A stretch of 63,799 nt of DNA, counting the filler, from Atractiella rhizophila (taxonomy: Eukaryota), in the NCBI GenBank assembly GCA_021432655.1. It is 48 parts of 48 records of this genome, joined end to end, with 100 filler letters (N's around TTAATTAATTAA, not from the genome) between each part and the next. Parts side by side here need not be neighbours in the genome. Positions count along the whole stretch, not along the records: positions 60,041 to 61,231 come from MU273091.1; 47 more parts are not named here. One strand, written 5' to 3'. Both the position numbers and the translations under genes were made by a program. The notes beneath the pieces are model-generated. The model saw only the letters and a program-made list of their open reading frames with translations. It was not told where the DNA came from and searched no databases. How positions within the stretch are numbered: position 1 is the first letter of the stretch; each line of letters begins with the position of its first letter. This document shows positions 8,300-61,331 of the stretch, piece by piece.

Positions 8300-9492
8300 G
8301 GTAAGGGAAGGATGAATGAAACAATTAGCGCAGATGAGGGATACTGTAATTGCAAAGCTGTTACCTCTTGTACAAGCATTCCTGTGCACAAGGCCTTAAA
8401 TCAGCTCCACCAGCTGGACACTAGTTGTAGCTAGATCTAGTTGAAATGCTGAAACGATCTGAAAGGATGATGCGGAAGCTTTGTCAGCTTCGTCTGCAGG
8501 TGGACTTCCGCCTGAGGGAAAATGGCAACCGCACGTCTTTCCGTTACCGAAGATGGTCGAGGTTCAACGTGTTTGCTCACGGAATAGATAGACTCTTGCT
8601 CGACTTGCAAACGATAGACACGACAACAAGCAGTGTGCTTTCGATCTGGCAATCACCAAAGGTCTGACTTTTCACTGGCAAGGGAGGTCAGATGGGATGC
8701 CGTATGAAATGAAATAATTAGATGGTAGAACTGGAGGCAAGAGGATGAATGTGCTTGCGAATTGGCAGGTGGATTTGACATGGACAGGAGGATGCGTTTC
8801 AACGAAGCGTTCGCTCCAGGGGGACATTTGAGCAGAACGCAAAGAATGCGGAGGCGCAGCTGTTTGCCCAAACGAAAGTGCAAACGAAGGTGCTACAGCG
8901 AGAGCTCTCAATGATTTTACAGGGGACAGATTGGTATCGACTTCATCCATTTGATCCCCAACGACATGCAAGACGACACACGCAGAAGGGCAAGTTTCCT
9001 CATGTCACAGCATAGAATGGAGAGAACAACTGAGCGTCTCTAGGATCCTGCTTGGGTCGTTCTGGTTGATTAAATGGGGCATTACTCTTCCATGATGACA
9101 GCGCAGAAAATTCTGCATACTACGGAGTAAAACCACCCACAGCATCATTCACCGAAAGAGCAAGCAAATGTATTTCCCAATCTCTGTACCTAGCGTAACG
9201 AATATACAAATGGTTCACGCACCTTGGCCACTCCGGCTGCTCTTTCCGTTTACAGTCCAAATGCAGCTTCTGTTCATCAGGGACTTACTACAGTCTATTT
9301 ATCCACAAGCTTTTAGCATCTGGGCAATGGTTGACTTCGGAAGATTAACGTGGCAATCTTTAAGCCACTGTAAACAGACACAAACAAACCAATTTTGTGG
9401 TATATATAGATGGTTCTGCAGTATATTTTACACGATGCACCATTCTGCGTTCTTGGCTCAGTGGTAGACGACTCGGAAGCCGTTCGCCAGTC
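8300..9492 (+). repeat. 1193-bp segment apparently identical to 57456-58648
   Basis: Identical ORF translations at a constant offset of 49156, and the same 3' contig end. Confidence 0.95.
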
Positions 9493-13555: not shown

Positions 13556-15007
13556 NNNNNNNNNNNNNNNNNNNNNNNNNNNNNNNNNNNNNNNNNNNNT
13601 TAATTAATTAANNNNNNNNNNNNNNNNNNNNNNNNNNNNNNNNNNNNNNNNNNNNCGTAACCAATTGGGCCAAGGATCGAGCATCGAGGATATCAAACTA
13701 CTTATGTTTCGGTTACTAGGGCAAAATGGGCAACAGCCTTCTCCCCTTTTGCTTTGTGTATTCCTTCGACTAGTATCTGTTCCTCTGACGCAATAATTTG
13801 TATCTTCTTTCATCATCTAGCAATGACCTTGCACATTAGGAGAGGTATACTTGACAGAGATCCTAGTTGGCTAATTCAATATGTGCTAGAGAAAAGCGAA
13901 GCTACGTCTGCAGTAAAGTCAAATCCTTACACAAATTTATTTCTGATCTATGATGATCTTACGGAGCGAGGACCTTTGCAACTTTGAGGGTACGCCCATC
14001 ATGAAGTAGAATATGTGAATCAGTGTGCATAGGTTTGGCTACAAATGTCGTAATCGTCGATTCAGCGGCGCTGTTCTCCACGTCAAAAGCCAGCTCTGTT
14101 CGACCACAATATCATAGCATAACGGCTTAGATGTCACTGGCAGCCAACTAGGCACTTCACATCCAACCAAACAGCCCTCCAATGCTATGCTTTCCTCTCG
14201 ACTTTTTTCAGGTTTGTAAATTGCCTATGAGAGACAGGTAATATGATATAAACTGGGAACAGGAGCGGGGACATCATGTCTCGTTTTTTTCCGGTGAGGC
14301 GGGCAGGTTTTGAGTGAAGAGCCTGGGATCACTGATTGTTGAAGCAACTTATAGTTCCGAGTGTATTGTGGAAAGTTGCCACCATCATCAATTTCAGCCA
14401 TCTTCAAGGGCGACCAGAGTTAATCAATCTATGAAAAGCACCTTCCGGGGAGCCTTCCTCTACTTCCCTCCACACAGTTTCTCTCTCACCTCTCACCAGC
14501 GACCCAGGGCGACACTCCCACCTTTCCTTCCTTTACAAGACGTGGTCCAACTAGATAAGTTATAGTTCGTCGACAATGATTCCTGGAGGGATGTGGAATG
14601 GGGAAATGAAGACTTCGGGACGGGATCTTCAGACAAACTGGTTGTGACTTGCCGTAGGCATCTCACCGCCTGCACCAAACCCTTTCTCCATTTTCGAGCT
14701 CCATGGCATCTAGCCCCAATGTTTCAAATGCAGATCTCCTCCTGCTACCCTCCAAATCTCAACTTCGAATCCTCAATCGATATATAGAAGAACTCCATAC
14801 TTCATCAGTTCTCAAGATATCAAGAAATCCATCGTCCGCCCTCCAAAGACTGCACTTCGCCTGCATCTACATTTCTGAAGCCCTCAAATGAGAGAAGTCC
14901 AAAGGGANNNNNNNNNNNNNNNNNNNNNNNNNNNNNNNNNNNNNNNNNNNNTTAATTAATTAANNNNNNNNNNNNNNNNNNNNNNNNNNNNNNNNNNNNN
15001 NNNNNNN

Positions 15008-28448: not shown

Positions 28449-28574
28449 TGGTTCCTTTTTCTTATTACTCAGCTTTTATGCTATAAAATAACTTCCCCTG
28501 CAAGTGTGAGACCCAGAGTTTTGATTGGTCTCGCACCTTGCAGCACCTTGCAGTCCCGCTGGCCCCACCGCTCA
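28449..28574 (+). mobile_element. 3' part of an LTR-like repeat related to family A (no GT-AG insert)
   Basis: TATAAAA (28482), then CCTGCAAGTGTGAGAC as in the 44394-44579 LTR, then TTGGTCTCGCACCTTGCAG as in the 45494-45602 copy. The right boundary is uncertain. Confidence 0.55.
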
Positions 28575-29799
28575 TAATCTTTATCAGAAGGGACAGGTAG
28601 TAATTGACTTTACACATTGCCTCAATTTGCATCATTTTGTTGTGGGATGCCAGTGGTTGTGCAGGTGTCTCCTCATCATGGCTGTTGATATTTTCAAGGG
28701 GGGACAGAAGAGTTATCAACCTCATTCAGCTTGACCCACAGGACTCAGAAAGCTGCAAGTCCTTGTCTTCTTCCTCCGATATCAGCTAGAGTGGGGTGCC
28801 AATGGGAGAAGGCACGATGAATTGGTTTGTCATCATCCTCCAAATCTGAAGCGACTTGACTCGTGAGATTTCAGCAAATGGTAATGAGAGGTGAGTTACC
28901 CTATTTAACTCCGTCTTAGAAAGTAAACACAAGAAGAGCAATGTGCATACACCATTGTAGTCAACCTTTGAGAATAGGATGCTGCATGCAGAATCTTCAA
29001 CTCATCAAACCCAGGGATCTCTTTGTGTCTACAGAGATCAATTCACGTCGGAAGTGGGACACAAAATAGACACACACTCAGACTCCTTGTACCTTCTCCT
29101 TTTCACTCGCTAATAGCTGTACCGTCCTCATTGTTCCTCTTCGCAAGGTCCACGGATGTTCTGATTCTCTTGCGTAAGATTGACATTCTTGAGCAGGGTA
29201 GGGATGGGTGGCGGTTCAGATAAACTGGGAGAAGCATCATTGGGCTGCTGAGATTTATAAGACTGAGGCTGAAGCTGCAAATTAACAAGTTGGAACAAGT
29301 TTGAAGGCAACCCGACGTGATATGATACCGTTGATCTGTCCTTGAAACCTGCCGACATCCATATGAACAGAATCATATATCGAATCGTATCGTAAACAGC
29401 AACTCAAGAGCGCTCGATACGCATTGGGGGTTGAATCGTGGTCGAAAGAAGATTCTTCGCTTCGCTTCAGGTATCGGAGTCGGCGTGGTAAGTACGGTTC
29501 GGGTTCGAGAGCCATCCTTATATATAAAGCACGACGGGTTTTTAGCATGACTCACGCATGTACTTTTGAGCACTTCTCTCACCACCCACAACTACCCTAC
29601 CAGTAGTCTGAGCATACCATCAGAATACGCGTGTCGGCGCCTTTCGAACCGTATACAACAAAGCCTATTTGAAAGACGAAAAAAAAANNNNNNNNNNNNN
29701 NNNNNNNNNNNNNNNNNNNNNNNNNNNNNNNTTAATTAATTAANNNNNNNNNNNNNNNNNNNNNNNNNNNNNNNNNNNNNNNNNNNNGGAAAGACGTAC

Positions 29800-35121: not shown

Positions 35122-36349
35122 TCATTAAGTACATGTGGTCGGCAGCAGGATACGTACTCATCGCCCTACCCGTCTTCCTCGAAGAGGTAGTAGGCATACC
35201 CATGTCTTCCCATGCCTCCCCCTTCTCTGGGGGAGATGAGAAGGTGGATGGAGGGTCCGAAGCTCGCGTGGCCAAACGAACCGAGAGTGCGTTGTGCCTG
35301 CCTCAATCTCTTTTCAATCTTCTAGAATTACAAGTTAAATCTGATGACGGTGTCTGGTACAGATTATATCTCGAATCGTCGCCTCCTACTCTCCCTCTCC
35401 GACGCCGGAGGTCGTCTCATGTATTCATACAAGGACCTAGCCGAGCTCGCAGGATACACTCAACGCGTCTTCACCTTCCTCGAGACGTTGCATCGGCTCA
35501 GATCGTCGACCTACACCCCCGCCGGGTACAAAATGGAGGAAAGAGGAGCGGAGAGGAGGAGAAAGAACGAGTTCGCGTTGGATACCATAAATGGGACGAT
35601 TGTCGTGGAACAGAGCGGAGAAGACGAGGAAGTCGTGTTTGAGAACGTACCCGTCGTCGCCCCCGCGCCATTGAAGGTAGAGATTGGAAATGGGACGACG
35701 GCGAAGACAGAGACGGGGAAAGCGGCGGATGGGGAAGAGGAAGGTTTGTTGGAGGGGGAAGGAGGGAGGAGGTTTGGAGAGGTCTTGGTGGAGAGTTTGA
35801 GCTTCAAAGTTCGAGAAGGAGAACATCTGCTCATCAGCGGACCGAACGGGAGCGGCAAATCTTCTATCGGTCGTCTCCTAGGAGGATTGTGGCCTGTCTT
35901 CGAGGGAGTGGTGAGGAGGCCGAAGGACGCGAAGGCGACCAGGTTCGCTAAAGGAGAGAAAAAGGAGAATGAGGGTATCATGTTCATCCCACAAAGACCT
36001 TACCTCTCCCTTGGCAGTCTGAGAGATCAGGTTATATATCCAGACAGCTATCCTGAGATGGTGGCCAAGGGACTGACGGATTCGGACCTGATTGGGATAC
36101 TGGAGAAGGTGCATTTGGAGTATCTGGTTGAGAGGGAGGGCGGGTTTGAGACGAGGAAGGAGTGGAAGGACGTCCTCAGGTATATCCTCCCTTCCAATCC
36201 CTATCCACATGCATAAATTGATGATGCCTGGTGGGTGGCCATAGCGGCGGAGAGAAACAGCGGATCAACCTCGCTCGTCTCTTCTACTTTCGTCCCAAAT
36301 TCGCAGTCCTAGACGAAGCCACCTCTGCCGTCTCCTCGGACGTGGAGGG
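35122..36349 (+). CDS. PXA1: Peroxisomal ABCD half-transporter Pxa1, internal fragment
   Basis: [30 protein letters not shown], Walker [10 protein letters not shown], signature L|SGGEKQR and Walker [11 protein letters not shown]. Confidence 0.93.
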
Positions 36350-36449: not shown

Positions 36450-37676
36450 CGAGTGAACCAGAGAGCTCATGCTCTCACACCCCCCCTCACTCGGTGCCCC
36501 AAGAAACCAGCACGAGAAAACTCCGAAAGTAAAGTAGAACAATGGTGAAGTATTAATGAGAAGTAAACACCATGTAATGAAAGTAAACGAAAGACCAATA
36601 CAACCGGATAGCAAAAAATGTCAATACGAAAAGGTAATGAACCAGAACAGTAATGAAATTTAATAAATCCGACAGCACAAATGAGCGTGAATATCTATGT
36701 ATGATGTATGTCAAACCATTCAGGAATCCAGTAATCCTAAGTGAGAGCATAATTTCCAGTGTTGCAAGTGCGATATGCCCTTCGTCATCACATCCGCTAT
36801 CATCTCCTGTGTTGGTATCCATGTCAGTACCACCTCACCTTTACTGACCCTTTCGCGGGTAAAATGGTAGTGAACGTCAACATGTTTCGTTCTGCTGTGG
36901 TTAGAAGGGTGTTTGGCCAAAGTGAGGGCTCCTTGGTTGTCGCCTTTGATCGTCGTAGGTGCATTCTGAGGGAAACCTAGCTCAGTCAGCAACGCCCGTA
37001 ACCAAATAGCCTCCCTGGCTGCCGATGATAGTGCTATGTATTCTGCTTCCATAGATGAGATCGCTACGGTCGGTTGCATCTTGGATATCCAAGATATCGC
37101 AGATCTCCCCAGTCTGAACACAATCCCTGAGATCGATCTCCTGGAATCAACATCAGACGCATGGTCAGAATCAGAAAAGCCTTCTATTGAAGTGGAGCCT
37201 GTACTGTCCCAAATCAGTCTAAAATGCAAAGTCGCAGCAAGATATCTGAAGATCCTCTGCACACATGCCCAATGTCGACGACCAGGATTCGAGTTGAATC
37301 GAGCTGCACGATTGACCGCGAACAGTATGTCCGGTCTGGTGTTTACTGCCGCATATATCAGTGCCCCAACTGCCTCTCTGTACGGTTTCTTCTGCATGTA
37401 CTCACGTTCTTCATCTGAATCGGGTGCCCACTCTTTCGATACCTTCTCATCCACATCGCAGGGAGTCTTGACGTGACTGCAATCAGTCATGCGAAAACGC
37501 TCAAGACACTTCTTGATGTAACTCTCCTGATCTAAAGCTACAATGCTGTTAGTCTCGTCCCAAACTATCCTCATCCCCAAGAAGTTACCAACGGCAGACG
37601 TGGTGATCCTGAACTTTGACCGAAGTAAATCGAACAATGCGTCAATCAAGTTGCGGGACGAAGCAGCAACCAATCC
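36450..37676 (-). mobile_element. Ty1/Copia 3' end: intact RT C-terminus plus RNase H (stop 36720), PPT (36480-36492) and start of the 3' LTR (36479 leftward)
   Basis: PYREAVGAL, TRPDI, GFSDSD, SSMEAEY, DNQGA, RTKHVDVHYHF and ADVMTK. GAGTGAGGGGGGG directly precedes TGTGAGAGC on the minus strand. Confidence 0.97.
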
Positions 37677-43068: not shown

Positions 43069-44286
43069 TGAGAGATATCAAAATCTGAGGCAGAGTACTC
43101 GATGCACATGTCCTGAGTGCCCTTGAGATAGCGCATGAGGTGTTTGGCAGCTTCCCAGTGCCTCTTGCCAGGATTGGAGAGGAATTTTCCGAGGACAGAG
43201 ACAGTGTGGGCAATGTCAGGGCGTGTAGCAACTGCAAGTTACATGAGAGAGCCCACAACATGGCTGTAGGGAATGGTTCGCATCTCTTCTTCGTCTTCCT
43301 TGGTCTGAGGACAGTCTTGCTTCGATAAACTGTGTGTTGGATTAGGTGTTATATTTTGTGGTCTTGTGTTGTGTGGTCAGCCACCTTTGTTGTGTTTGCT
43401 TCACTTCGGAGTTTTAGCCCCCTGGGGGGCAGTTTAGGCGGTCATCATTTTTGACCACCAATCTCTGTCCCCTAGCTCCATCCAGCATCAGATTCTCTCA
43501 GTGGGGGTGTTACTGGCCGCTCTGGGGCTGCCTGTGGCATGTCTGGTGCTTTAACCCTCTCTTGCTCCGCTTCCTGATCGTCTCCTTCATCCCTCGATCC
43601 TTCAAAACGATTTGGGGATTCCACCCTGAGTCTCTCACGTTCTCCTTTATCCTCCAAAGTGTCCTCCTCCTCCTTATCTTCACCAAAATCCAAAAGGACG
43701 GCAGGAGCATCTCTCTTTTCTTCTCCCACCTGATCCTGACGTTCTTTCCATCGTCCAGTGGCCCCTGAGGCGGTTCCAACACGTTTTCCTTCCTCCTGAC
43801 TTTGCAGAGCATCTCCCTCTCATCAAATTTCACAATATCTCTGGTGTAGACCTTCTTAGACACTGGATCCCAGAATCCCAGCCTTTAGCGCTGGTAGAGT
43901 AACCTATAAAGGCACATCTGCATGTATGGGATGCCAGACTGTGCCTTCTTTCGTCCTTCTGAACTTGGACATACGCAGTAGAGCCTAGGACTCTGAAACA
44001 CGAAATATCGACCAGTTGCCCTGTCAATTTCGTGTGGGGAATGGAGTGATTGATGGAGGAAGAGGGGGATCTGTTCCTGATGTGAACCACAGCCGAAGCA
44101 AGATGAGCCAGAGGAATAGTGGCAAACCAGATTCCTCCAGTATCGCCACCATCCCCTCCTGAATCGTCCTATTCGCTCTCTCTGCTCTCCCATTTTGATG
44201 AGGAGAGTTCCTAATCGTTTGCTCACGCTGGATGCCACAATTTCGAAGATATTCATCAAAATCTGTTGAGGAGTAGGCGCCTTCTT
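43069..44286 (-). mobile_element. Rearranged Copia remnant: integrase/SH3 region (43501-44286) and RT C-terminus (43069-43330) separated by an inverted LTR
   Basis: TPHQNGRAERANRTIQE, HIRNRSP, FRVLGSTAYV and CAFIGYS on one side; IPYSHVVGSLM*..RPDIA..SNPGKRHWEAAKHLMRYLKGT on the other. Confidence 0.92.
43335..43500 (+). mobile_element. Family B LTR (166 bp, intron-less form)
   Basis: TGTTGGA...CTCTCA, homologous to 60722-60886(-) and 60450-60594(+). Confidence 0.8.
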
Positions 44287-44393: not shown

Positions 44394-44579
44394 TGACAGA
44401 ATCATACACCTCCTTTCGCCACTTGCGTCCTTGCATGTTTAGTTTCCTTCGAGCACTTTCCGGAACTGTGGCCTATCTTTTGCCACAGGGATCCCTCTGT
44501 TATAAAAGCTTGGAAACCTGCAAGTGTGAGACTTATACTCAGTGTTCTCTTGCACTTCACAGCGCTCATACATTTGTCA
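44394..44579 (+). mobile_element. Family A solo LTR (186 bp, intron-less form)
   Basis: TGACA...TGTCA termini, flanks GGTAG/TGTAG (4 of 5 TSD match), TATAAAA at 44501. Homologous to 54420-54660. Confidence 0.85.
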
Positions 44580-45493: not shown

Positions 45494-45602
45494 TGAGGGC
45501 GACAGGGTGCGAGGCTGCGAGGTGCGAGACCAACCAATAAGGATGTGATTCTAGCTATGTAAAGATGAAATACATTACCTGCGAGGTGCGAGACCAACCA
45601 AT
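45494..45602 (-). mobile_element. 3' part of a family-A-related LTR-like repeat with a 64-nt GT-AG insert (45515-45578)
   Basis: Minus strand reads ATTGGTTGGTCTCGCACCTCGCAG|GTAATGT...ATTGGTTGGTCTCGCACCTCGCAG|CCTC. The insert start resembles the family A insert. Confidence 0.65.
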
Positions 45603-49850: not shown

Positions 49851-50638
49851 ATGGCTCCGAAAGAGCAGCGGCGAGGTCAGAGACAACGGACTTTGAAGAA
49901 CATGTCAAAGTGGAATAACGAGGATGGAACGTCATTAAGCGAGAAGGAGAGGAAGAAGGACTCGGAGGAAGAGTAAGCCTTTGACTGCAATCAGTTGTGG
50001 GTTACACTGACCGGCGACTGAAGGCTCTTCGGAATCCCTGGATATGAGTTTATCAAGGTTTTGGCATCCACTAGCAAAACAGCACCTCAGCACGCAAACG
50101 CAGTGCGTCTTTCCCACTTGGTTTTTCAGTTAAAGACTTCCGGACTGAAAACTGATCGTTCATGCAGAAGAACTCAGCCTTGTACACGAAAGCGGTTGCG
50201 CTCCTTGACCAGCTTGACTCTCAAGCTGACGACAACGATGCGCTCCTTGACCAGCTTGACTCTCAAGCTGACGACAACGATGACCCCTTCCATGCCGCAT
50301 TCTCTGGATGGCGCCCTTCCTCCCCCGTCGATGTTGGATATCAAGACGGGCTCAAAGCATTCACAACTCTATGGAAGCGGCTTCAGCAAGTTTCTTCCGT
50401 TCCCGAAGTCACTCTACGAGCACGCAAAGCATATCTTTGTGCTGCTGCAGAGCACATCCACGCTGTACTCCTTCCCGAAGGTCTCGTTGATTTGATGGGA
50501 CCGGATCAACTCTATATCCCACAGCAAGAAGAAGAGGAGGGCGAAGATGTGACGACCCTAGACCGGAGGAGATTGATGCGGTTGAAATTGCAGATGTTAC
50601 CTCTGAAGGTAGACAGTTCAAAAACAAAGAAAAAATGA
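49851..50638 (+). CDS. Hypothetical multi-exon protein with a 14-aa tandem duplication
   Basis: TATAAAA about 50 nt upstream, ATG at 49851, donors GTAAGC and GTGCGT, and a long exon from ~50168. The 3' end is uncertain. Confidence 0.45.
50198..50281 (+). repeat. Perfect 42-bp tandem duplication (ALLDQLDSQADDND x2)
   Basis: Read directly from the sequence. Confidence 0.95.
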
Positions 50639-54419: not shown

Positions 54420-54660
54420 TGATAGAATCGTGCGCCTCCTCCTCTCGCTGCGCGTTTAGTTTCCTTCGAGCACTTTCTGAAACTGTGGCCAACCTTTTGC
54501 CACAGGGATCTCTCTGTTATAAAAGCTTGTAAACCTGCAAGTGCGAGACTTATACTCATCGTTATCTCGCACTTCACAGGTAATGTAGTTTTCCCTTACA
54601 TACTGAATGCAACTTATACTCATTGTTATCTCGCACTTTGCAGCGCTAATACATTTGTCA
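54420..54660 (+). mobile_element. Family A solo LTR (241 bp) with perfect 5-bp TSD and a 64-nt GT-AG insert (54580-54643)
   Basis: TTGTC|TGATAG...TTTGTCA|TTGTC, with TATAAAA at 54518. Confidence 0.92.
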
Positions 54661-58648: not shown

Positions 58649-60121
58649 NNNNNNNNNNNNNNNNNNNNNNNNNNNNNNNNNNNNNNNNNNNNTTAATTAA
58701 TTAANNNNNNNNNNNNNNNNNNNNNNNNNNNNNNNNNNNNNNNNNNNNCATCGTCCGCCCTCCAAAGACTGCACTTCGCCTGCATCTACATTTCTGAAGC
58801 CCTCAAATGAGAGAAGTCCAAAGGGAAAAATCCCTGTGGTTGCTCTCTCTTCCTTCAACAACAGCTTTGAACGTGTCGGACCTTCCAAGAGTACAACTGT
58901 TGAAGTGATACGCCATGGCACGTGCTGAGATGAGAGCAACGAGCTACGGACCAACTGACTGAAGAGAGGAGGACGGATGGAAATTCAGCGGCATCCGTGT
59001 CGCTCCCTTCAGCCTGGGGGTCGTGCAGGGAAAAGCGAGTATAGTGTGGGAGATCAAAGCGCAATTGAGAAAAGTGGAGCTTCAAGCCGGATGAGATAGT
59101 TGTCTCTGCTGGAGGTAGAGGATTGCTTGGGGTATGCCTATGGAACTTGAAGAACCGGATGTCAGGCTTGCCCCTACGCATTACCGAAATACACCATTTG
59201 AAGTCACGTGACCTACTTTCACCATGTCATAGGATCACGTGCCTGCCCATCGCCGCTTTGCTCACGTTCGTGCTGATCGCCGCCTTCCCCTATCTCACAC
59301 GAATTGCCGCTCAGCAAACCTTACACATTTCGCCGGTCTGCACCGTCTCCATCATTGCTTTATTGTCCTTTCTCACTTGTACTGCTCAGTATGTCTTATT
59401 TCCGAGTATTCCCTTTATTGCTTTCCTGATCTAGCTATCTTACATGTTTCAAGAAACGTATGTTACAGTTTATGGCAGTGCTTTTACATATGTATATATA
59501 CATCGAGATGTAGTGGTGGTGACCTCAGAGTATTCTCTTAGGTTTACCTCCACTACAGACACATCGCCCATCGGCGACCGCACATAGTGTTTGCCCTAAC
59601 ACTGGACTGGAGTCATGGTACGCTTCAATTCCTTATTCTGTAGCTGCAGCTGCGACATTCAACCAATAGCAGTGACTGCTGCCTCATAGCGACCACACTG
59701 CACCGACTCCGGCTAGCATAATTGAAGGCCATGATTATTACTGCTTCTTTGGGCACAAAACCCGTCTCGAAATAATGTGTGACATGTTGGTTTACTCACA
59801 AAGGAGGTGTAACAAGCGTAGTAGTTGACAACTCAAGGGTCGTCAATGCGATTGAACACTTCTGGCGGTTCGTATTCCAATCCTCCTGCTATCATAAATA
59901 CAATCACCTGTTGATCATAGATTTAGACGATCATCAAATCNNNNNNNNNNNNNNNNNNNNNNNNNNNNNNNNNNNNNNNNNNNNTTAATTAATTAANNNN
60001 NNNNNNNNNNNNNNNNNNNNNNNNNNNNNNNNNNNNNNNNTGTTGAACCTTGGGTATAAAGGGTTAATCTGCACTGTTGGGAATGACTGGTCACTTTAGT
60101 GCAATTGGCTAAATCCAGCAG

Positions 60122-60984
60122 ATTTTGGTGAAGATGAAGAGGAGGAGGACATTTTGAAAGGTCAGGGAGAGCGGGAGAGACTCAGGGTGGAGTCCCCAGA
60201 TCGTTTTGAAGGATTAAGGGACGAAGGAGAAAATCAGGAAGCGGAGCAAGAGAGGGAAGAAGCACCAGACAGGCCACAGGCTGCTCCAGAGCGGCCAGTA
60301 ACACCCCCACCACGTCTTGTTCCTCAGAGAGACCCTTGGACTGGACTAATGATGGTGGGAAGACAGACAGAATCGCCAGATCCTCTCCAAATGACGCCTC
60401 CTCAAGCTATCCCTGTCCCTGCGGCTCCATCCAGCATCAGATTCTCTCAGTTTTAGCCCCCTAGGGGGCAGTTTAGGCGGTCATCATCTTTGACCACCAA
60501 TCTCTGTCCCCTAGGTATGTGTTTCCCTATCAATGTTATCATCTTTGACCACCAATCTCTGTCCCCTAGCTCCATCCAGCATCAGATTCTCTCAATACTT
60601 CCTTCTCCCTGGTCTCTGCTGACTTGTTGAAGACCCTATGCTGCTTCCCAGCTGGCATGGCTTGCAAATAGGGTCTGGATCATCCTCTAGGTCCAAAATC
60701 GTCCCATTCACAAGTTCCTTCTGAGAGGAATACACGCTGGATGGAGCTAGGGGACAGGAGTTGGTGGTCAAAGATGATGACCACCAAGACTGCCCCCTAG
60801 GGAGAAAAACTATGAAGTGAGTAAACACAGCAAAGGTGGCTGACCACACTAAGACAACACCATGAAATTTAACAGCTGATCCAACACTCCCACCTGGGCA
60901 GCCGCCTCTTGAAGCTCCCACCAAATCCAATAATCGTCGAAGAAAGCTCCCACCGAATATAAACGGCGTCGAATGGTATGACAC
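60122..60984. mobile_element. Mosaic of family B Copia pieces: post-integrase spacer (+, 60122-60420), LTR 3' parts (+, 60424-60449 and 60450-60594), GAG-pre-integrase (-, 60595-60721), full LTR (-, 60722-60886) with PPT-like tract
   Basis: ERERLRVESP..PQAAPERPVTPP is shared with 43503-43690(-). KELVNG..DPICKPCQLG is present. CAGGTGGGAG precedes TGTTGGA on the minus strand. Confidence 0.8.
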
Positions 60985-61331
60985 AAAGAAAACATGTTAA
61001 TTGATTGTCTAAATCCACTAGAGAGATCCTCGTACCGCTTAGAGCGGCGTCTTATAACCCCCAGAAGGAGGACAGAGCTTTATTGCGCCCCATAACTGCC
61101 TCATACACTTGGGTAGGGGCGCAGACCCATCATTTCTCGCAATTTTGAGACTCCAGCAACTGGTAAAGCCTTGGTGAGGAGGTCTGCAGGCATAGACTCG
61201 CCAGGACAGAAGACTGGGGCGATGAGTCCAGNNNNNNNNNNNNNNNNNNNNNNNNNNNNNNNNNNNNNNNNNNNNTTAATTAATTAANNNNNNNNNNNNN
61301 NNNNNNNNNNNNNNNNNNNNNNNNNNNNNNN

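Follow-up and report, generated by a model that had tools for sequence, protein, structure and literature searches.

A candidate optional mini-intron with a duplicated acceptor-like block in the leader of a Copia-type long terminal repeat of Atractiella rhizophila

The Penelope element of Drosophila virilis carries a 75-bp leader intron in its pseudo-LTR (LTR, long terminal repeat), 46 bp downstream of the start; spliced and unspliced RNAs exist, and deletion of the intron abolishes reporter expression (PMC2377424). Introns inside LTRs have been reported from maize, where they were called the first such evidence (bioRxiv 10.64898/2026.05.08.723830). Here, we describe a GT..AG unit in a 63,799-nucleotide (nt) stretch of DNA (“the window”) from the basidiomycete fungus Atractiella rhizophila (GenBank assembly GCA_021432655.1), which is best read as a 55-nt module that some copies of a ~166-nt Ty1/Copia LTR carry, and others do not, in the R/U5 part of the transcribed leader.

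By analogy, the Penelope intron would be the nearest functional counterpart: here too, a short candidate intron lies tens of bases after the predicted start and inside the terminal repeat of a retroelement, and copies with and without the insert are found, as are copies and transcripts of both kinds in Penelope (PMC2377424). The two differ in that Penelope falls outside the LTR retrotransposons and has pseudo-LTRs that reverse transcription does not generate, in that the passages on its leader intron describe no upstream duplication serving as acceptor, and in that its splicing was shown by reverse transcription–polymerase chain reaction, whereas the present unit is known from sequence alone. 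The maize introns share a GT-AG unit wholly within the LTR of an LTR retrotransposon, but they sit in long LTRs, average ~1.3 kb and yield products described as non-coding RNAs, unlike the ~166-nt LTR and the optional 55-nt unit beside the primer-binding site seen here, the 3′ part of which copies the preceding sequence. A flanking direct repeat, and an original sequence restored by removal, are also features of introners and of intron gain by AGGT tandem duplication (PMC3265369, PMC4974935). However, introners have short duplications, are hundreds of bases long and are spread through genes, and under the AGGT model it is the downstream exon that the start of the intron repeats, whereas the present unit has a unique spacer, a 24–35-nt repeat and an LTR as host. 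The limited literature collection searched yielded no account of an intron in an LTR whose acceptor is duplicated, and the finding would extend the known retroelement leader introns by a duplicated-acceptor design in an LTR. Retroviral reverse transcriptase (RT) makes length polymorphisms, direct-repeat deletions and duplications, and, as in the unit described here, the stretches concerned are bounded by a hairpin and by RNA ends in R-U5 and the forms interconvert easily. To our knowledge, no such duplications with a donor-like start and an acceptor-like end have been found in two unrelated families.

The window consists of 48 contigs of 1183–1278 bp each, sorted by length and separated by N44-TTAATTAATTAA-N44, and holds ~57 kb of searchable sequence. 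The insert lies in the 1191-bp contig at 60041–61231 and belongs to an LTR family that we call family B. Its parts and the two insert-less LTRs used for comparison are as follows:

60480–60514, plus strand: block copy 1, 35 nt, ending CCCCTAG; apical loop and descending strand of a predicted hairpin, and end of the 5′ exon if spliced
60515–60534, plus strand: putative donor module or spacer, GTATGTGTTTCCCTATCAAT; 23 nt when counted to 60537
60535–60569, plus strand: block copy 2, 34/35 identical to copy 1, with TTGAC, a pyrimidine run and TAG
60570–60594, plus strand: terminal 25 nt of the LTR, U5-like, ending in CA and homologous to the insert-less LTRs
43335–43500, plus strand: insert-less LTR of the same subfamily as the insert-bearing copy, 166 nt, TG..CA; antisense in a degenerate Copia copy
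60722–60886, minus strand: insert-less LTR of a second subfamily, complete, 165 nt, 84% identical to 43335–43500

The direct repeat 60480–60514/60535–60569 extends over 35 nt with one mismatch and a start-to-start distance of 55, and its perfect core comprises 32 nt (60483–60514 and 60538–60569). Between the core copies lies a 23-nt spacer (60515–60537) that opens with GTATGT and has, at up to three mismatches, a single match in the window, namely itself, against none expected. The second block closes with TAG at 60569 and is followed by 25 nt closing with CA at 60594. In both insert-less LTRs, ...CCCCTAG is joined directly to CTCCATCC, and removal of the 55 nt from 60515 to 60569 gives back the insert-less sequence exactly. 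An earlier note on this DNA had described the perfect 32-nt block standing twice around a GTATGT spacer, the resulting 55-nt GT..AG unit with duplicated acceptor 25 nt before the LTR end, and the direct block-to-LTR-end junction of the two insert-less copies; every one of these elements was seen again. If the insert is spliced, block copy 2 would be its branch and acceptor region.

To follow the insert beyond the window, Logan contigs (k = 31) of four sequence runs were compared with the contig 60041–61231 only, family A (see below) being left out. Run X1, the likely source sample, yielded 985 contigs matching this 1.2-kb contig, so that the LTR family must be very high-copy; Logan contig depths give no copy numbers, and proportions were therefore not derived. 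Many X1 contigs cover the spacer, and variants are present among them (60527 C>T in six, 60535 G>C in four and 60537 T>C in 10); with the change at 60537, the family B repeat becomes perfect over all 35 nt. One X1 contig passes from 60500 to 60558, skipping 57 positions, and represents the insert-less form. Another belongs to the second LTR subfamily (84% identical; B2, as opposed to the B1 copy in the window) and carries the block 60747–60778 twice around a 23-nt spacer, which opens GTATGTGTTTCC on the LTR strand. The two spacers align locally over 20 nt with three mismatches, a score reached by 0 of 2000 shuffles, and are identical at 17 of 23 positions over their full length (counted by eye). 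Run X3, labelled as a different organism, contains an 85-nt contig running across block, spacer and block with nine differences. Runs X4 and X6 have one contig each on 60041–61231; that of X6 (RNA by guess only) covers 60736–60887 with 20 differences and no insert and is uninformative for splicing. The insert is multi-copy, occurring in several variants, a second subfamily and a second organism. The earlier note had been prepared to give up its claim if the insert occurred in this one copy only, which the X1 variants, the second subfamily and X3 contradict.

The same data bear on the suspicion that a unique local tandem duplication in a dead copy, or else an artefact of assembly, lies behind the insert, which we consider very improbable indeed. 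It would suit a rearranged, nested and truncated element in a 1.2-kb contig of a fragmented assembly, and a 32-nt repeat is close to common k-mer sizes. The assembly word size is larger than this, however: positions 14830–14907 and 58749–58826 are 78 identical bases at the overlapping ends of two contigs, which indicates that short reads were assembled into a fragmented genome at a final word size of ~79, exceeding the length of the repeat. A further contig (57456–58648) lies wholly inside 8300–9492 at 100% identity, and both cases are assembly redundancy and k-mer overlaps. Moreover, independent X1 variants, X3 and the second subfamily all carry the insert.

The design recurs elsewhere in the window, in a second LTR family (family A) and at a further locus (C), each with an insert-less relative:

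54548–54643, plus strand: family A with insert; 32-nt block, 32-nt spacer starting GTAATG, block again (29/32); GT..AG unit of 64 nt
44531–44562, plus strand: insert-less family A block, directly followed by CGCTCATAC...
45515–45602, minus strand: locus C with insert; block truncated at the contig end (24 nt or more), 40-nt spacer starting GTAATG, block again (24/24); unit of 64 nt
28520–28543, plus strand: insert-less C-like block, 21/24 identical to C, inside an LTR-like repeat spanning 28449–28590; TATA box 29–30 nt before the homologous start of the block

Family B thus reads AG/GTATGT...TAG, and the A and C units read AG/GTAATG...CAG with a weaker donor. The spacer of C is homologous to that of A (0/500 shuffles), and the two loci are alike across the junction of block end and spacer (38 nt, 82%), although their blocks differ in the 5′ half. 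A relaxed scan of the whole window returned seven spaced direct repeats, three with the arrangement block-AG/GT..block-AG (A, B and C) and four without it; two window-wide scans for spaced direct repeats gave no further loci of this design. All three instances sit in LTR-like repeats, and insert-bearing and insert-less forms coexist in all four lineages. The blocks are near-identical within a copy though divergent between lineages, and the first 8–12 nt are the best-conserved part of the spacer within each family pair. The design in family A, postulated by the earlier note, could be confirmed at 54548–54643, with its insert-less relative at 44531–44562. The note had also seen no similarity between families A and B; this holds for the blocks, which are unrelated, and needs amending for the spacers, which are weakly alike, though not significantly so (131/2000 shuffles for B1 and 623/2000 for B2). 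Its further argument that recurrence speaks for function rather than chance does not follow, because template switching linked to replication would recur too.

Recurrence with divergent blocks might alternatively reflect an introner-like mobile spacer that inserts after pyrimidine-AG, duplicates 24–35 nt of upstream target and was gained independently in each lineage. Excision of the spacer together with one repeat restores the target, as it does in introners (PMC11282704, 10.1101/2022.06.06.494994), and both the likeness of the two blocks within each copy and their difference between lineages would be expected, as would homologous A and C spacers behind blocks that differ in the 5′ half. The distribution of the spacers makes this origin quite improbable, however. 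No spacer-like sequence stands beside any other AG/GT site in ~57 kb, so that the many gene copies typical of introners were not found; spacer likeness tracks the LTR family (B1–B2, A–C) instead of being genome-wide, and likeness between the spacers of A and B falls short of significance. The spacers are 20–40 nt long without transposon features or visible terminal inverted repeats, and the 24–35-nt repeats end at RNA landmarks (see below) rather than reflecting a transposase stagger. We know of no transposase that makes target duplications of 24–35 nt.

Searches for related sequence beyond the repeats gave little. The 3′ part of the B2 spacer matches pol coding sequence at 43176–43190 (minus strand, ..FLSNPG..) in 14 of 15 positions (0/500 shuffles), and the B2 spacer matches the B2 LTR in 12 of 13 (6/2000 shuffles), comparisons of spacers with their own LTR being otherwise not significant. 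After ~20 comparisons, both matches are possibly due to chance; the pol segment could be the template of the B2 spacer or a chance likeness. A scan of a genome-contig collection for the block returned 0 matches. The one metagenome match to the junction of block and spacer (L001) was set aside, as it shares the 19-mer alone and looks like an unrelated exon–intron border; by our estimate, a few chance matches to the junction are expected in a collection of this size.

For comparison with genuine spliceosomal introns, we used a gene fragment at 35122–36349 that encodes a PXA-type peroxisomal ABC transporter (open reading frame (ORF) 35326–36213; best named matches in Pucciniomycotina, ~53% identity, as expected of a basidiomycete whose close relatives are not represented in the collection compared) and in which two introns are fixed by the alignment of three homologues:

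35287–35362: real intron 1, 76 nt, GTGCGT..CTGAT..CAG
36180–36244: real intron 2, 65 nt, GTATAT..TTGAT..TAG

The candidate units measure 55, 64 and 64 nt, compared with 76 and 65 nt in these only two verified introns (a heuristic intron finder gave 41 noisy candidates, which were not used for statistics). The family B unit has GT..AG ends with a consensus-like donor, and its TTGAC, 21 nt before the AG, is comparable to the TTGAT and CTGAT of the real introns. The donor- and acceptor-like ends, the 55/64-nt lengths, the exact restorability and the presence in two unrelated families all point to the spliceosome, and splicing of the insert is plausible.

Other properties point to reverse transcription, namely the duplicated block, its near-identity within a copy and its boundaries, which coincide with predicted RNA landmarks. 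The family B leader is predicted to fold into a strong hairpin (z −3.3 with insert and −3.8 without), 18 pairs of which are kept in 3/3 copies (60450–60514, 43418–43475 and, on the minus strand, 60747–60806) while internal loops vary; we take it to resemble the R-region hairpins of the kind that aids strand transfer. The block takes in the apical loop and the descending strand; the pairing partner of its last 11 nt is CTAGGGGGCAG, farther upstream, so that GTATGT stands exactly at the hairpin base. In the predicted fold, the stem encloses the acceptor-like end of copy 1 but leaves that of copy 2 free. In families A and C, all three copies in which the region is visible (A+, A- and C-) have a TATA box 29–30 nt before the start of the block, from which the block probably begins at the RNA 5′ end. 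Both kinds of landmark, hairpin and RNA 5′ end, are places of RT pausing or run-off. No Rfam family reaches its gathering score; a match to MIR7533 (50 bits with 230 needed) was dismissed, as it merely reflects the inverted LTR arms.

The insert-bearing copy is embedded in a nested array, the remaining parts of which are:

60100–60404, plus sense: Copia internal region, acidic linker after the integrase; ORF, homology to other copies stopping at ~60404
60405–60449, plus strand: first LTR 3′-end fragment, approximately LTR positions 122–166, ending CTCTCA
60450–60479, plus strand: ascending strand of the hairpin, LTR positions 76–106
60595–60721, minus strand: Copia gag/pre-integrase fragment, 127 nt, with a CxxC..G motif; ORF
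60887–61231, minus strand: 3′ untranslated region, purine tract and last 42 codons of pol; ORF

Measured against the 166-nt LTR 43335–43500, positions 60409–60449 correspond to LTR positions 127–166 (88%), 60449–60514 to 76–141 (97%) and 60535–60594 to 107–166 (97%), and LTR positions 1–75 are missing from the plus-strand copy; the final 26 nt of the fragment 60405–60449 are identical to 60569–60594. What the earlier note had treated as a whole LTR therefore has to be redescribed as rearranged LTR 3′ fragments (122–166, 76–141, spacer, 107–166), and the copy is a rearranged, truncated and dead nested one. The internal region 60100–60404 is 88% identical over 190 nt to 43501–43690 on the opposite strand, and one X1 contig (record 1) spans 60161–60404 and is divergent beyond. 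The insert-less LTR 60722–60886 is a genuine 3′ LTR of a minus-strand element: read in the direction of the element, it follows the pol end (E 0.002 against the C-terminal part of the ORF 36723–37676, RT/RNase H), an untranslated stretch and, immediately before the LTR, a purine run, ..GGTGGGAG. The segment 60595–60721 is the target DNA, enclosed by a pair of LTR ends in facing orientation; in X3, a stretch matching it runs on both sides without any LTR.

Assignment to Copia, proposed by the earlier note, is supported. The LTRs 43335–43500 and 60886–60722 begin TGT and finish CTCTCA, the minus-strand element has the C-terminus of pol together with a purine tract and an LTR of the TG..CA type, and a sister contig (43069–44286, minus strand) contains, in order, the integrase core, an SH3_retrovirus domain, an acidic linker and an RT/RNase H-like fragment. 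The SH3_retrovirus match has E 1.7e-10, and that of the integrase core to rve_3 (E 0.025) is below cutoff; the RT/RNase H-like fragment matches the ORF 36723–37676 with E 5e-13, and this ORF reaches only 21.7 bits against the end of RVT_2, below the cutoff of 31.6. Judged by these matches, the order with integrase before RT is that of Copia genes. A TGG-starting sequence resembling a primer-binding site follows the LTR end only in the loose end of one X3 contig, and there are no tRNA genes in the window with which to compare it.

Several further irregularities of these copies were observed. In the sister contig, the antisense solo LTR 43335–43500 stands in place of the N-terminal part of RT, with integrase and linker on one side, the RT C-terminus on the other and a frameshifted integrase region. 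On either side of the 127-nt Copia fragment, the LTR 3′ parts 60535–60594 and 60722–60781 point towards each other and make up an inverted repeat of 60 nt (83% complementary), and a read-through RNA would form a long hairpin. At 60449/60450, the LTR end CTCTCA abuts LTR position 76, and one X1 contig breaks at the same point; LTR position 76 (60450) may be the transcription start. In another X1 contig, the LTR end 60594 is fused to an LTR start on the opposite strand. The family B array may consist of concatenated strong-stop-like units.

The reading that we tentatively prefer, at slightly less than even odds, is that of an optional leader mini-intron that originated by template switching and has been kept because it is spliceable, its removal restoring a plain LTR. 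RT, copying the leader from the primer-binding site, would leave its template at a natural stop, for family B at the apex of the hairpin and for A and C at the 5′ end of the RNA. The enzyme would then copy a short foreign stretch and re-enter at the hairpin base, whereby the block is duplicated. Although only 17–25 nt away from the primer-binding site and the end of the LTR, the insert could persist in active lineages as a small intron of the leader, removable by the spliceosome, and insert-less LTRs would arise again and again through spliced RNA or through RT jumps between the identical blocks, which would account for the presence of both states in all four lineages.

Several observations weigh against this reading. 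No source of the spacer was found in the window, a 10-mer search giving only single chance words. Branch motifs in A and C are weak, and their GTAATG does not have the usual G at intron position 5, which is, however, also absent from one real local intron (GTATAT). Nothing about an ordinary intron explains why its end should repeat the exon before it, and a special origin has to be assumed. The GU-rich start of the spacer, right after the block, could serve 3′-end formation rather than splicing. The insert-bearing copy in the window, being dead, says nothing about activity, and Logan contig depths cannot yield copy numbers. Finally, the landmarks of RT pausing and run-off at which the blocks end suit a purely replicative duplication equally well.

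Such a replicative duplication is the main rival explanation, though we regard it as rather unlikely. The insert would then be an unspliced by-product, a partial duplication of the R-U5 leader by RT pausing and mis-registered strand transfer that has been repeatedly reshuffled; the spacer would be filler, or a GU-rich U5 start that aids 3′-end formation, and the GT..AG ends would be incidental. The extent of the block in family B, from hairpin apex to base, agrees with this, as does its start ~30 nt after the TATA box, at the predicted RNA 5′ end, in A and C. Further jumps nearby, from the LTR end at 60449 to position 76 and from the internal region to position ~122 near 60405, are of the same kind, as is the opposite-strand fusion at 60594, and homogenisation linked to replication would explain why blocks are near-identical within a copy and divergent between lineages. 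What duplication as such would not predict is that in both unrelated families the block ends in pyrimidines and AG and the spacer starts GTA. With A and C counted as one, the design is found at two independent loci among six spaced repeats; at ~1/128 for each, on either strand, our own arithmetic gives P ~1e-3. The 55- and 64-nt units match local introns in length, and it is the first 8–12 nt of the spacer that are best conserved within family pairs. An additional 55–64 nt that is never removed would also be expected to disturb priming at a primer-binding site only 17–25 nt away.

Two other routes to a duplicated block were considered and rejected. Lariat read-through and intron-circle models leave the upstream block copy unexplained unless extra assumptions are made. 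End-to-end strand transfer with the block being exactly R suits the TATA spacing in A and C and predicts poly(A) or U5 as spacer, which was not seen.

Elsewhere in the window, a perfect 42-nt tandem duplication (2.0 copies) lies within an ORF at 50197–50282, where the peptide ..ALLDQLDSQADDND.. is repeated.

The origin of new spliceosomal introns is a long-standing open question. Routes at the RNA level have been proposed, among them reverse splicing with subsequent reverse transcription, and are described as hard to observe because the return of an ordinary mRNA into DNA is a rare event (PMC10996645). The RNAs of LTR retrotransposons, being copied back to DNA every generation, can record RNA-level events. 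If the insert is spliced, the family would offer a dated series of intron-present and intron-absent copies with a defined creation signature, and a simple reporter test of the effect of a leader intron on a retroelement. If it is unspliced, it would still illustrate clearly how template switching in R-U5 is bounded by hairpins and RNA ends, and would warn that GT..AG-shaped duplications need no spliceosome to arise. A more far-reaching proposal, for which we see only a slim chance, is that reverse transcription of leaders repeatably creates spliceosomal introns: a jump at an RNA end or hairpin would bring in a donor-bearing stretch, and 24–35 nt copied a second time would supply branch, pyrimidine tract and acceptor. 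In this fungus, two or more unrelated LTR families would have gained and kept introns in this way that are optional and restore the plain sequence on removal. If true, this would be a natural RNA-level birth of introns recorded in DNA.

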